The position numbers were made by a program, and so were the translations under genes. A DNA stretch of 64,000 nucleotides from Escherichia coli. Lineage in GTDB: Bacteria; Pseudomonadota; Gammaproteobacteria; Enterobacterales; Enterobacteriaceae. The stretch is from the NCBI RefSeq assembly GCF_003334305.1, contig NZ_QOWS01000001.1; one strand, written 5' to 3'. This document shows positions 3,024 through 40,565 of this stretch, piece by piece. The first letter of the stretch is position 1. Each line of letters starts with the position of its first letter. The notes under the pieces are model-generated. The model saw only the letters and a list, made by a program, of their open reading frames with translations, was not told the DNA's origin and did not search any database.

Positions 3024-9870
<6,847 letters not shown>

Positions 9871-11520
9871 GTGAACTGGCGCAGAATCGTCTGGCTATTG
9901 GCGTTGGTTACTCTGCCAACGCTTGCGGAGGAGACGCCGTTACAACTGGTGCTGCGCGGTGCGCAGCACGATCAACTGTATCAGCTGTCGTCATCAGGCG
10001 TGACCAAAGTCTCAGCATTACCTGACTCGCTCACCACGCCGTTAGGGAGTTTGTGGAAACTGTATGTTTACGCCTGGCTGGAGGATACCCATCAACCGGA
10101 GCAGCCCTACCAGTGTCGCGGAAACTCCCCGGAAGAGGTTTATTGTTGTCAGGCTGGGGAGAGCATAACGCGCGATACCGCGCTGGTACGTTCCTGTGGG
10201 CTCTATTTTGCGCCGCAGCGGTTGCATATTGGCGCAGATGTGTGGGGGCAATACTGGCAACAGCGTCAGGCACCTGCGTGGTTAGCGTCTCTGCCTACGC
10301 TGAAGCCAGAAACCTCGGTAACGGTTAAATCGCTGCTTGATTCATTAGCGACGTTACCCGCGCAAAACAAAGCTCAGGAAGTCTTACTGGATGTGGTGCT
10401 GGACGAGGCGAAAATCGGTGTCGCATCCATGCTCGGTAGTCGGGTACGGGTGAAAACCTGGAGCTGGTTTGCCGATGATAAACAGGAAATCCGTCAGGGT
10501 GGTTTTGCTGGCTGGTTAACCGATGGTACACCGCTGTGGGTTACTGGCAGTGGCACCAGCAAAACGGTACTAACCCGTTATGCGACGGTGCTTAATCGGG
10601 TTTTGCCAGTGCCGACGCAGGTTGCCAGTGGGCAATGTGTAGAGGTGGAGCTGTTTGCCCGCTATCCGCTGAAGAAAATCACAGCGGAGAAGAGTACGAC
10701 GGCAGTAAAACCCGGCGTACTTAATGGGCGCTATCGTGTGACGTTTACCAATGGTAACCACATTACGTTTGTCAGCCACGGTGAGACGACCTTACTGAGC
10801 GAAAAGAGCAAACTGAAATTGCAGTCGCATCTCGATCGTGAAGAGTACGTTGCCAGAGTTCTGGATCGCGAGGCGAAAAGTACGCCCCCTGAGGCAGCGA
10901 AAGCCATGACCGTGGCGATTCGCACTTTTTTACAGCAAAACGCCAATCGGGAAGGCGATTGCCTGACCATCCCCGACAGCAGCGCCACGCAGCGTGTTTC
11001 TGCTTCGCCAGCGACCACGGGGGCGCGAACGATGACCGCCTGGACGCAGGATCTCATCTATGCAGGCGATCCGGTTCATTATCATGGCAGTCGCGCTACC
11101 GAAGGGACACTTTCCTGGCGGCAAGCCACGGCCCAGGCGGGGCAGGGGGAGCGTTACGACCAGATACTCGCGTTTGCTTATCCCGACAACAGCCTTAGCC
11201 GCTGGGGAGCGCCACGCTCAACCTGCCAGTTATTACCCAAAGCGAAAGCCTGGCTGGCGAAAAAAATGCCGCAGTGGCGGCGTATATTACAAGCTGAGAC
11301 GGGGTACAACGAACCAGACGTGTTTGCGGTTTGCCGTTTAGTCTCAGGTTTCCCCTATACCGATCGGCAGCAGAAACGGCTGTTTATTCGTAACTTCTTT
11401 ACGCTTCAGGATCGGCTGGATTTAACCCATGAGTATCTGCACCTGGCCTTTGATGGTTATCCCACCGGGCTTGATGAGAACTATATCGAAACGCTGACCC
11501 GACAATTATTAATGGACTAA
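9871..11520 (+). CDS. yfaQ: YfaQ, DUF2300-family exported protein
   Basis: 549-aa ORF with GTG start immediately after the yfaS TAA; signal-peptide-like N-terminus MNWRRIVWLLALVTLPTLAEE. Confidence 0.85.
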   Translation: MNWRRIVWLLALVTLPTLAEETPLQLVLRGAQHDQLYQLSSSGVTKVSALPDSLTTPLGSLWKLYVYAWLEDTHQPEQPYQCRGNSPEEVYCCQAGESITRDTALVRSCGLYFAPQRLHIGADVWGQYWQQRQAPAWLASLPTLKPETSVTVKSLLDSLATLPAQNKAQEVLLDVVLDEAKIGVASMLGSRVRVKTWSWFADDKQEIRQGGFAGWLTDGTPLWVTGSGTSKTVLTRYATVLNRVLPVPTQVASGQCVEVELFARYPLKKITAEKSTTAVKPGVLNGRYRVTFTNGNHITFVSHGETTLLSEKSKLKLQSHLDREEYVARVLDREAKSTPPEAAKAMTVAIRTFLQQNANREGDCLTIPDSSATQRVSASPATTGARTMTAWTQDLIYAGDPVHYHGSRATEGTLSWRQATAQAGQGERYDQILAFAYPDNSLSRWGAPRSTCQLLPKAKAWLAKKMPQWRRILQAETGYNEPDVFAVCRLVSGFPYTDRQQKRLFIRNFFTLQDRLDLTHEYLHLAFDGYPTGLDENYIETLTRQLLMD

Positions 11521-11524
11521 TGCT

Positions 11525-12301
11525 ATGCGAAAGATTTTTCTTCCGTTGTTACTGGTGGCACTTTCGCCTGTCGTTCACAGTGAAGGTGTGCAGGAAGTCG
11601 AGATTGACGCACCGCTCTCTGGCTGGCATCCGGCAGAGGGCGAAGATGCCAGTTTTTCACAATCGATCAATTACCCGGCGTCGTCCGTCAACATGGCAGA
11701 TGATCAAAATATCTCAGCGCAGATCCGCGGCAAAATAAAGAATTATGCTGCGGCGGGTAAAGTTCAGCAGGGCCGGCTGGTGGTCAACGGTGCCAGTATG
11801 CCGCAGAGAGTTGAATCCGATGGTTCATTTGCACGCCCTTATATTTTCACTGAAGGCAGCAACAGCGTGCAGGTCATCAGCCCGGATGGGCAAAGCCGAC
11901 AAAAAATGCAGTTTTACTCAATGCCGGGTACAGGAACGATTCGTGCACGTTTACGGCTAGTTCTCTCGTGGGATACGGACAATACCGATCTCGATCTCCA
12001 TGTTGTCACGCCCGATGGCGAACACGCCTGGTACGGTAACACCGTGCTGAAAAACAGTGGTGCACTGGATATGGATGTCACGACGGGGTACGGACCCGAG
12101 ATTTTCGCCATGCCAGCACCAGTTCACGGGCGCTATCAGGTGTATATCAACTACTATGGTGGGCGCAGCGAAACGGAATTGACGACCGCCCAACTGACGC
12201 TGATCACCGATGAAGGATCGGTCAATGAGAAACAGGAAACATTTATTGTACCGATGCGTAATGCTGGCGAGCTGACGCTGGTGAAAAGTTTTGACTGGTG
12301 A
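11525..12301 (+). CDS. yfaP: YfaP, DUF2135-family exported protein
   Basis: 258-aa ORF starting 4 nt after the yfaQ stop; signal-peptide-like N-terminus MRKIFLPLLLVALSPVVHSEG. Confidence 0.85.
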   Translation: MRKIFLPLLLVALSPVVHSEGVQEVEIDAPLSGWHPAEGEDASFSQSINYPASSVNMADDQNISAQIRGKIKNYAAAGKVQQGRLVVNGASMPQRVESDGSFARPYIFTEGSNSVQVISPDGQSRQKMQFYSMPGTGTIRARLRLVLSWDTDNTDLDLHVVTPDGEHAWYGNTVLKNSGALDMDVTTGYGPEIFAMPAPVHGRYQVYINYYGGRSETELTTAQLTLITDEGSVNEKQETFIVPMRNAGELTLVKSFDW

Positions 12302-12353
12302 TCCATCCCTTCACACAACCTGGCTCTCTCTTTTTTCAGATAAGACTGCTGGG

Positions 12354-12400
12354 CGATCTGCCGACGCCAGGATATAACCATTAACAAGCGTCGGCAGATT
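12354..12400 (+). terminator. Stem-loop downstream of yfaP (possible terminator)
   Basis: Perfect 12-bp inverted repeat ATCTGCCGACGC / GCGTCGGCAGAT with ~20-nt loop, followed by T-rich TTTCTTATTTTT. Confidence 0.35.
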
Positions 12401-12575
12401 GGTCATTTCTTATTTTTCGTACTGAGAACTGTCCATCTACTCCGGCTTTCCTGGTTAAGGCAATGGTTTCTAAGCGATACGCATTATTGCAATGGTGACA
12501 GAACATTGCGGTAACACGCTTTTACCGCTACCTTAACCACACTCCATCGGTCACCTGAGGCGGAGCTTCGCCCCT

Positions 12576-15414
12576 TTGAAATACCTTGCTTCTTTTCGTA
12601 CAACCCTGAAAGCCTCGCGCTACATGTTCAGAGCATTGGCGTTAGTGCTCTGGCTGTTGATTGCTTTTTCATCCGTTTTTTACATCGTTAATGCGTTACA
12701 TCAGCGAGAATCGGAAATTCGTCAGGAATTTAATCTGAGTTCCGATCAGGCTCAGCGCTTTATTCAACGCACCTCTGATGTGATGAAAGAGCTGAAGTAC
12801 ATCGCCGAAAATCGCTTATCGGCAGAAAACGGTGTGCTTTCCCCGCGTGGACGAGAAACGCAGGCGGATGTGCCTGCGTTTGAACCGCTGTTTGCCGACT
12901 CCGATTGTTCCGCAATGAGTAACACCTGGCGAGGTTCTCTGGAGTCATTGGCGTGGTTTATGCGCTACTGGCGCGATAATTTTTCTGCGGCTTACGATCT
13001 CAACCGGGTATTTTTAATCGGCAGTGATAACCTCTGCATGGCCAATTTCGGTCTGCGTGATATGCCAGTGGAACGCGATACCGCGTTGAAAGCTTTGCAT
13101 GAACGCATCAATAAATATCGAAATGCACCACAAGATGATAGCGGCAGTAACCTCTACTGGATCAGCGAAGGTCCGCGCCCTGGCGTCGGGTATTTTTACG
13201 CGTTGACGCCAGTTTATCTGGCGAACCGGTTGCAGGCGCTTTTGGGTGTCGAGCAGACCATCCGGATGGAGAACTTTTTCTTACCGGGTACGTTGCCGAT
13301 GGGGGTTACCATTCTTGATGAAAATGGTCATACCCTGATTTCGCTTACCGGACCAGAAAGTAAAATTAAGGGCGATCCTCGCTGGATGCAGGAACGCTCC
13401 TGGTTTGGCTATACGGAAGGGTTCCGGGAGCTGGTGCTGAAGAAAAATCTGCCACCCTCATCGCTAAGCATCGTGTATTCGGTGCCGGTTGATAAGGTGC
13501 TGGAACGCATTCGCATGTTGATCCTTAACGCAATTTTGCTGAATGTGCTTGCCGGAGCTGCATTGTTTACTCTCGCACGGATGTACGAGCGACGTATTTT
13601 CATTCCGGCGGAAAGCGACGCCCTGCGACTGGAAGAACATGAGCAGTTCAATCGCAAGATTGTCGCCTCCGCGCCAGTGGGTATCTGCATTTTGCGTACC
13701 GCTGATGGCGTCAATATTTTAAGTAACGAACTGGCGCATACCTATCTCAATATGCTTACGCATGAGGACCGCCAACGACTGACGCAAATTATCTGTGGGC
13801 AGCAGGTCAATTTTGTTGATGTCCTGACCAGCAACAATACCAATCTGCAAATCAGCTTCGTCCATTCGCGCTATCGTAATGAAAACGTGGCCATTTGTGT
13901 GCTGGTGGATGTTTCTTCGCGCGTGAAGATGGAAGAGTCGTTGCAGGAGATGGCACAAGCAGCGGAACAGGCGAGCCAGTCAAAATCGATGTTCCTTGCC
14001 ACCGTCAGTCATGAGCTGCGAACGCCGCTGTATGGCATTATCGGTAACCTGGATCTGTTGCAAACCAAAGAGTTACCGAAAGGCGTCGATCGGCTGGTGA
14101 CGGCAATGAACAACTCTTCCAGCCTGTTGTTGAAAATTATCAGCGATATTCTCGATTTCTCGAAGATTGAATCGGAACAGTTGAAGATCGAACCGCGTGA
14201 GTTTTCACCGCGTGAAGTGATGAACCACATCACCGCCAACTATTTACCGCTGGTGGTACGCAAGCAGTTAGGCTTGTACTGCTTTATTGAACCGGATGTG
14301 CCAGTGGCCTTAAATGGCGACCCGATGCGTTTACAGCAGGTCATCTCCAACCTGTTGAGTAACGCCATAAAATTCACCGATACCGGCTGTATAGTTTTGC
14401 ATGTCCGCGCTGATGGCGATTATCTCTCTATCCGTGTTCGCGATACCGGCGTGGGGATTCCGGCGAAAGAAGTGGTGCGCTTGTTTGATCCCTTCTTCCA
14501 GGTCGGAACGGGCGTACAGCGAAACTTCCAGGGGACCGGTCTGGGTCTGGCGATTTGTGAAAAACTGATCAGCATGATGGACGGCGATATCTCGGTAGAT
14601 TCAGAACCGGGAATGGGCAGCCAGTTTACCGTGCGTATTCCGTTGTACGGCGCTCAGTACCCGCAGAAAAAAGGCGTGGAAGGGTTGAGTGGTAAACGCT
14701 GCTGGCTGGCGGTCCGCAATGCGTCGCTCTGTCAGTTCCTGGAAACCAGTTTGCAGCGCAGCGGCATCGTCGTTACAACATACGAAGGGCAGGAACCGAC
14801 TCCCGAAGATGTGTTAATTACTGACGAGGTAGTGAGTAAAAAATGGCAGGGTAGAGCGGTAGTGACCTTCTGTCGTCGCCATATTGGTATTCCGCTGGAG
14901 AAAGCGCCAGGGGAGTGGGTACACAGTGTGGCTGCCCCGCATGAGCTACCGGCATTGTTGGCGCGTATTTATTTGATCGAGATGGAGAGCGACGATCCTG
15001 CTAACGCTCTGCCGTCGACGGACAAAGCGGTCAGCGATAATGACGATATGATGATTCTGGTCGTGGATGATCATCCGATTAACCGACGTCTGCTGGCAGA
15101 TCAGTTGGGATCGTTGGGCTATCAATGTAAAACCGCGAATGATGGTGTCGATGCGCTTAATGTACTTAGCAAGAATCATATTGATATCGTGCTTAGCGAC
15201 GTCAACATGCCAAATATGGATGGTTACCGCTTGACGCAACGCATTCGTCAGTTGGGACTGACGTTGCCGGTAATCGGAGTAACTGCTAATGCGTTGGCTG
15301 AAGAGAAGCAGCGGTGTCTGGAGTCCGGTATGGACAGCTGCCTGTCGAAGCCGGTAACGCTGGATGTGATAAAACAGACGCTGACGGTATATGCCGAGAG
15401 GGTCAGGAAATCGC

Positions 15415-15425
<11 letters not shown>
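12576..15425 (+). CDS. rcsC: Rcs phosphorelay hybrid sensor histidine kinase RcsC
   Basis: 949-aa ORF starting MKYLASFRTTLK on a TTG codon; contains histidine-kinase H-box (SHELRTP) and C-terminal receiver domain (VVDDHPINRR...). Confidence 0.95.
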
Positions 15426-19687: not shown

Positions 19688-20806
<1,119 letters not shown>

Positions 20807-27345: not shown

Positions 27346-27478
27346 GATGTGCCACATCCGGCATGGTATGCCGGATGTGGCGTATGCTGATAAGACGCGC
27401 CAGCGTCGCATCAGGCACCGGCTCGGGCGTTAGATGTCGGATGCGGCGTGACCGCCTTATTCGGCCTACGGGGTGCCG
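27346..27478. repeat. Cluster of three REP-type palindromic units between convergent mqo and eco
   Basis: GCCACATCCGGCATGGTATGCCGGATGTGGC (perfect palindrome), then ...GATAAGACGCGCCAGCGTCGCATCAGG..., then GATGTCGGATGCGGCGTGACCGCCTTATTCGGCCTAC. Confidence 0.8.
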
Positions 27479-27492
27479 CACTTCACAGCATT

Positions 27493-40528: not shown

Positions 40529-40565
40529 AAAGAGGCCCGATGGTGATGCCATCGGGCTATTTTTA
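40524..40565. terminator. Bidirectional rho-independent terminator between convergent ccmH and narP
   Basis: A-tract, GCCCGATGG-TGATG-CCATCGGGC hairpin, then T-tract; T-tract overlaps the narP stop codon. Confidence 0.8.

Follow-up and report, generated by a model that had tools for sequence, protein, structure and literature searches.

The 274 bp that separate yfaP from rcsC in the window (the 64-kb stretch of Escherichia coli DNA that we analyzed) are very probably an old deletion allele of the atoSC-atoDAEB locus. In the ancestor, yfaP and its terminator would have been followed by atoB-E-A-D-C-S on the opposite strand and then by rcsC. One deletion would have removed everything from just past the stop codon of yfaP to about codon 50 of atoS, and it would have left behind a spacer of about 24 bp, an 80-bp fragment from the 5' part of atoS, and the former atoS-rcsC intergenic region. 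This leftover DNA, presumably free of selection, would then have diverged far past the normal variation of E. coli, while the flanks, through continued recombination within the species, would have remained about 99% identical to K-12. The allele now appears to segregate in about 28% of complete E. coli genomes and to be shared with Escherichia whittamii. Finally, a hairpin and a T-rich run that arose within the atoS fragment may have taken over the termination of yfa transcripts.

What remains of ato between yfaP and rcsC

The first-pass annotation of this DNA had described a non-coding gap of 274 bp and had placed the ato genes of K-12 between rcsC and yfaP. Both statements hold. In the window, 274 bp lie between the last base of yfaP (12301) and the first base of rcsC (12576), and there is no ORF of 60 or more amino acids wholly within the gap. 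The annotation of K-12 MG1655 has the order yfaQ, yfaP, atoB-atoE-atoA-atoD-atoC-atoS (on the opposite strand), and rcsC. YfaP from the window is 98.5% identical to K-12 YfaP, its gene is annotated as yfaP in E. coli strain A7, and RcsC is 99.7% identical to K-12 RcsC. (Positions 11500-13400 of the window are 100% identical to strain A7.) There is no IS element at the yfaP-rcsC junction. By protein-level comparison, we did not find ato genes anywhere in the 64-kb window: the only matches to Ato proteins are the paralogous kinase and receiver domains of rcsC and its neighbors.

The first-pass annotation had also proposed aligning the interval to K-12, and this gives the boundaries of the deletion as 12302/12303 and 12499/12500. 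In a pairwise alignment, identity with K-12 ends one base past the yfaP stop codon and comes back 76 bp before the start of rcsC. Between these points, K-12 has a segment of 7411 bp (about 7.4 kb), versus 197 bp in the window. The block just upstream of rcsC, where the alignment resumes, is identical to K-12 at 76 of 76 positions, to E. whittamii at 73 of 76, and to Citrobacter at 58-61 of 76. The spacer at the other end aligns poorly to E. whittamii (12 of 24 positions are identical without gaps). Table 1 lists the features of the locus.

Table 1. Features of the yfaP-rcsC locus, in coordinates of the window
Feature	Position	Strand	Details
yfaP	11525..12301	+	ORF, 258 aa; last gene of the yfaS-yfaQ-yfaP run (alpha-2-macroglobulin gene cluster)
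Allele-specific spacer with the left end of the putative old deletion	12303..12326	.	Alignment to K-12
atoS pseudogene fragment, AtoS codons ~23-49	12327..12406	-	60/80 identical to K-12 atoS
Perfect 12-bp inverted repeat	12356..12399	+	Arms 12356-12367 ATCTGCCGACGC and 12388-12399 GCGTCGGCAGAT, 20 nt apart
T-rich run after the hairpin, candidate U-tract of a non-canonical yfa terminator	12404..12419	+	ATTTCTTATTTTTCGT
Diverged atoS-rcsC intergenic remains, formerly the promoter side of atoS	12407..12499	.	57% identical to K-12, 83% to E. whittamii
Conserved block upstream of rcsC, presumed promoter and 5' UTR	12500..12575	+	K-12 identity resumes
rcsC, sensor kinase of the Rcs phosphorelay	12576..15425	+	ORF, 949 aa, TTG start

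Another statement of the first-pass annotation, that no remnant of ato was left in the gap, was mistaken. Positions 12327-12406 match nucleotides 67-145 of K-12 atoS with 60 identities out of 80 and a single 1-nt indel (E = 1e-11). On the minus strand, this piece translates as MTNLPTLVNGYILASADRPAVLSEK up to a frameshift, after which there is a stop, and all of the functional AtoS proteins have MVIVPTLTIGYIVETEGRSAVLSEKEKKL at the homologous position. The reading frame is broken by a 1-nt insertion, and a stop comes after 31 codons. We considered whether this 31-codon ORF might encode a small protein, and we dropped the idea: in our alignment, the E. whittamii copy of the remnant contains an in-frame TAG.

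The synteny and orientation of the remnant are as in the intact loci, with the 5' end of atoS toward rcsC and divergent from it. In a multiple alignment, the DNA from the remnant through rcsC is collinear with K-12, Escherichia sp. E1V33, and Citrobacter. Compared to the alleles that have ato, the former intergenic DNA (12407-12499) lacks 64 columns, which correspond to atoS codons 1-22, and, separately, 11 bp; both of these deletions are also found in E. whittamii. Within this region, 12453-12476 matches the K-12 DNA between atoS and rcsC at 79% identity. The remnant matches atoS at 67-79% identity in 24 of the loci that we searched, including other Escherichia as well as Citrobacter, and among 80 Enterobacteriaceae loci, we did not find any closer donor (none was above about 79%; the range was 67-79%). 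It appears that the remnant has no specific donor and sits on a long branch, and we take it to be a decayed atoS within a deletion allele of the ato operon. We did not find any literature that describes the atoS remnant or the yfaP-rcsC junction: the papers mention only the ato genes of the LAA island and a scoring of AtoSC as not present in three of four Shigella columns.

The window differs from K-12 in several other places. A unit of about 113 bp is present as a single copy (27387-27489). In K-12, about five copies of it are arrayed in tandem between mqo and eco (positions 3060137-3060589 of the K-12 record); this is an intergenic repeat whose copy number varies. The yfaS gene (alpha-2-macroglobulin family; 5251-9870) is one intact ORF of 1539 aa, and the annotation of K-12 has it as a pseudogene that contains an internal stop. 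The IS5 element (about 1.2 kb) of K-12 yejO is absent (41593-41596), and the autotransporter gene yejO has no IS5 interruption. There is also a small indel at 40535-40559, where about 150 bp of K-12 sequence between narP and ccmH (about 3046802-3046954 in the record) is missing. Last, ompC (20100-20700) has 51, 149, and 96 mismatches to K-12 in consecutive 200-bp bins, versus 0-6 elsewhere, in an ungapped comparison whose counts may be inflated by an indel offset. This divergent stretch is the expected hypervariable region of the surface loops.

Loss or gain, and the age and frequency of the ato-less allele

The first-pass annotation suggested looking for short direct repeats on either side of ato, and the borders of ato in K-12 turned out to have neither direct nor inverted repeats of at least 7 bp. 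Such a check presupposes an insertion. We dropped the insertion model because these repeats are missing, and synteny in outgroups implies that ato is ancestral and that the window has the deletion. We scanned one genome per species with the N-terminus of RcsC and obtained 80 loci. The scan did not pick up E. albertii, E. fergusonii, E. marmotae, or E. ruysiae, and the picture for the genus as a whole therefore has gaps. In 17 of the 80 loci, a complete or nearly complete run from atoS to atoB lies directly upstream of rcsC, as in K-12; nearly all of these are labeled as Citrobacter. In a few further Citrobacter loci, the ato-rcsC arrangement is truncated by the ends of contigs, and in one Buttiauxella locus all of the ato genes are present beside rcsC. 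Because Citrobacter and Buttiauxella share the arrangement of K-12, we argue that ato next to rcsC is ancestral, and from these comparisons the gap in the window appears to be a deletion of ato and not an empty insertion site.

Could the ato-less state nevertheless be the ancestral one, with strains of the K-12 type having gained ato as an island? The ato genes can be mobile, as the LAA island at pheV carries atoSC-atoDAEB (PMC5539235), and the boundaries of identity with K-12 are sharp, as they would be for an insertion. But the “empty” site holds a fragment of atoS, which has the position and orientation expected from synteny, and atoS adjoins rcsC in both Citrobacter and Buttiauxella. Besides lacking repeats, the native K-12 locus has no annotated integrase, tRNA, IS, or other mobility gene. 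A gain of ato as an island is therefore very unlikely.

The deletion also appears to be old. The left flank has 64 mismatches to K-12 in 4587 bp, and the right flank has 0-6 mismatches per 200 bp through rcsC; that is, the flanks are 98.6-99.5% identical to K-12, or about 1% different. In contrast, the remnant is just 65-72% identical to every functional atoS; over these columns, the functional genes share 85-93% identity among themselves. The former intergenic DNA is even less similar to its K-12 counterpart (57%) than the K-12 sequence is to that of Citrobacter (65-68%). Furthermore, E. whittamii has the same junction, the same remnant, the same loss of 64 columns, and the same 11-bp deletion, with 88% identity over the whole gap. 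Because the remnant is so diverged, the flanks are about 99% identical, and the same scar is present in E. whittamii, it seems that the scar is far older than the diversity of E. coli. This estimate of age depends on 80-197 sites that are poorly alignable, and part of the divergence could be due not to time but to a single multi-base event, such as a template switch that made a quasi-palindrome perfect.

The identity to K-12 changes abruptly at 12302/12303 and at 12499/12500, and we infer that this is because the flanks recombine while the leftover DNA diverges. Recombination should homogenize the flanks of an old indel, but it should not be able to mix two cores that are not homologous. The locus would then be a small and clean case of a frozen indel core, in which an old coalescence is kept and the flanks are homogenized by recombination.

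The locus was described in the first pass as strain-variable, and counts across genomes agree. Among 5426 complete E. coli genomes, 1541 (28%) have a contiguous, ato-less yfaP-rcsC junction, including O157:H7 and O55:H7 strains, and ato is present in 3932 (nearly complete in 3899), including K-12, BL21(DE3), and S88. CFT073 and an ST131 strain have the split, ato-type junction. The 197-bp core is full-length in 1537 genomes, and these are found only among the genomes with a contiguous junction. The core is chromosomal, with no copies on plasmids, and there is usually one copy per genome (the median is 1 and the highest is 2). Its identity is at least 99% in 1032 records and 95-99% in 509; the listed O157:H7 and O55:H7 strains are at 99.0%.

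These counts also bear on whether the deletion might have happened recently in the strain or clone that the window came from, for example via an IS element or microhomology. Young and independent losses do exist, as in PCP06171 (where IS1 is associated with a loss from yfaQ' to atoS') and in MOD1-EC7003, both of which are discussed below. Here, however, there is no IS, and the remnant is 28-35% diverged from all atoS genes while the flanks are about 1% diverged from K-12. The identical scar is found in the 1541 genomes, which represent at least two distant lineages and include O157:H7 as well as near-identical strains, and it is found in E. whittamii. A recent event thus seems highly improbable, and the old deletion remains our explanation.

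At the level of gene content, the presence or absence of ato is already visible in the literature, because a table in a review scores AtoS and AtoC as not present in three of four columns for Shigella (PMC9496106) and because ato is reported in papers on LAA. The allele in the window is an ordinary gene-content polymorphism of a kind that is already known, the loss of a catabolic operon, and it leaves current understanding unchanged.

A hairpin within the atoS fragment

A perfect 12-bp inverted repeat and a T-rich run after it had been noticed in the first pass, and both are present (Table 1). The inverted repeat lies wholly inside the atoS remnant, and both of its arms align column by column with the coding sequence of atoS. 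By an arithmetic estimate, about 5e-4 perfect 12-mer repeats with loops of up to 30 nt would be expected by chance in 274 bp. When 12296-12430 is folded as RNA, z = -3.98, and none of 200 shuffled sequences fold equally well. The stem is GC-rich and reaches from about 12350 to about 12405, with the 12 perfect pairs extended to at least 14. The predicted stability of the hairpin is -29.7 kcal/mol in E. coli and -20.4 kcal/mol in E. whittamii, as compared to -6.8 to -14 kcal/mol in functional atoS genes, which already form a weak hairpin at this position. The T-rich run begins 4-5 nt past the stem, and it is weaker or degraded in E. whittamii and in strain MB51.

In principle, the inverted repeat might instead be a copy of a dispersed element (REP or MITE) or a recombinase or operator site that has nothing to do with ato. 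Perfect palindromic arms in an intergenic region would suit such an element, and there are REP elements at the equivalent junction of MOD1-EC7003. But it would be hard to reconcile this with arms that align to atoS along their entire length, or with a 197-bp core that is single-copy (with a median of one place per genome) and is not on plasmids. A scan of metagenomes with a 21-mer from the loop found two E. coli-like contigs from this locus and one isolated exact match that has no other similarity to it. We give almost no credence to a dispersed repeat or an unrelated site, and we consider the hairpin to be derived from atoS.

Relative to atoS, the arms have changed more than the loop: 6 of 12 positions differ in the first arm and 4 of 12 in the second, versus 5 of 20 in the loop. 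In the alignment, three adjacent changes in the first arm (TTT to ACG) give complementarity to the second arm. The atoS-derived segment of E. coli matches that of E. whittamii at 76 of 80 positions, as compared to 88 of 116 for the other allele-specific DNA (Fisher p = 3e-4). Given the strong divergence from atoS and the close match to E. whittamii, it appears that the hairpin segment changed a lot and then changed little. The perfect repeat is not strictly maintained, because E. coli THO-010 has two mutations in the arms, which weaken its fold to -22.9 kcal/mol.

The orientation of the hairpin and the T-rich run would suit the termination of yfa transcripts before rcsC. We tentatively suggest that they may now end the transcripts of the yfa operon, and that they may shield rcsC and replace the yfaP/atoB terminator that was lost. 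Several observations speak against a strictly functional hairpin: its loop is 20 nt, versus 3-8 nt in typical intrinsic terminators, the T-rich run is set off from the stem and is degraded in E. whittamii and MB51, THO-010 has its two arm mutations, and covariance models from Rfam 15 had no matches in 12100-12800 at E ≤ 1. A scan of 12000-12900 for consensus terminators and promoters made no call at the hairpin, whose loop is above 8 nt, and found no promoters. Because the same scan also missed the clear terminator hairpin between yfaP and atoB in K-12, we attach little weight to its silence.

We are more doubtful about a broader claim, that the atoS fragment was exapted: that the hairpin was acquired after the deletion and was selected as a terminator or insulator between yfa and rcsC, within an ato-less allele that is older than E. 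coli and is common to E. whittamii. If this did occur, then the gain of the hairpin was possibly a template-switch “correction” of a weak quasi-palindrome in atoS.

The similarity between the hairpins of the two species might have another cause. If the allele did not persist within E. coli but introgressed between E. coli and lineages like E. whittamii after these had split, then the similarity would reflect recent ancestry and not function. The allele-specific DNA is 83-95% identical between the species, versus 69-77% for the third codon positions of the adjacent genes (77% for yfaP and 69% for rcsC), as would be expected if the allele had moved. On the other hand, the similarity is uneven within just 200 bp (about 50% in the spacer, 95% in the remnant, and 83% in the distal intergenic part), which would not be expected for a single transferred tract, and the flanking genes do not show a dip in divergence beside the junction. 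We consider introgression to be somewhat unlikely.

Other ato loci and comparison with known systems

The old deletion is not the only change to ato at this position. In Escherichia sp. MOD1-EC7003 (L006 9246-10000), there is a separate, young deletion of ato: what is left is 300 bp of K-12-like atoS' (97% identical), a fragment of atoB, and a REP element. In E. coli PCP06171 (L005 3763-5417), an IS1 lies between a truncated yfaQ and a truncated atoS, and yfaP has been lost as well. In both of these, as in the window, ato was lost from this locus and a 5' fragment of atoS remains beside rcsC. In contrast to the window, these are young events with different endpoints, and the atoS' of MOD1-EC7003 includes codons 1-22. 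A different sort of variation is found in Escherichia sp. E1V33 (L009 1-4682), which has ato at the native position with AtoS, AtoC, and RcsC that are 82%, 88%, and 97% identical to those of K-12. Judging from these identities, the ato of E1V33 is a third haplotype of the locus within the genus, and a strongly diverged one. All told, ato has been lost at least three separate times at this locus, and it has been regained on an island.

The island in question is the LAA pathogenicity island, whose module I includes atoSC-atoDAEB as ORF6-11 (Montero et al. 2017, PMC5539235). For example, E. coli O178:H19 2012C-4431 has a complete atoSC-atoDAEB (L004 7001-14251; chromosome 4796289-4803539) that is 98.2% identical to K-12, and its neighbors are a tyrosine integrase, iha, and remnants of IS66. 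It is part of an island at tRNA-Phe that corresponds to module I of the LAA island. The island-type atoS junction, with ato at tRNA-Phe (pheV), is found in 49 complete E. coli genomes. From the counts above, at least 47 genomes should have both the ato-less junction and ato (1541 + 3932 - 5426 = 47). If we set this bound against the 49 that were observed, it appears that essentially all of the island copies of ato are in genomes whose native locus lacks ato.

Strains with the ato-less allele, including O157:H7 and O55:H7, would be expected to lack AtoSC signaling and the catabolism of acetoacetate and short-chain fatty acids (butyrate), unless they carry LAA. This should be kept in mind when interpreting phenotypes that relate to metabolism in the gut. 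Also, in surveys that score ato as “LAA module I” (PMC6113874, PMC10562709), native ato may pass for a partial island.

How does the window compare to the known ato systems? Like the atoSC-atoDAEB locus of K-12, it has its allele between yfaP and rcsC, and it keeps DNA homologous to atoS codons ~23-49 and to the intergenic region between atoS and rcsC. Unlike K-12, it has none of the six genes, and what is left over is 28-43% diverged and non-coding. Module I of the LAA island has the same six genes as the native K-12 locus, but it is located at tRNA-Phe with an integrase, iha, and IS remnants rather than between yfaP and rcsC, and it is absent from the window.

As for the hairpin, the closest comparison is the bidirectional terminator in the yfaP/atoB intergenic region of K-12 (L001 4620-4665), which is a hairpin of -33.6 kcal/mol, preceded by an A-tract and followed by a U-tract, and which lies inside the deleted segment. 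The hairpin in the window also has a GC-rich stem and a T-rich stretch downstream of the last gene of an operon, and its stability is comparable (-29.7 versus -33.6 kcal/mol). It differs from rho-independent terminators in that its loop is 20 nt, its T-run is set off from the stem, and it originated from coding sequence; we view it as a candidate terminator.
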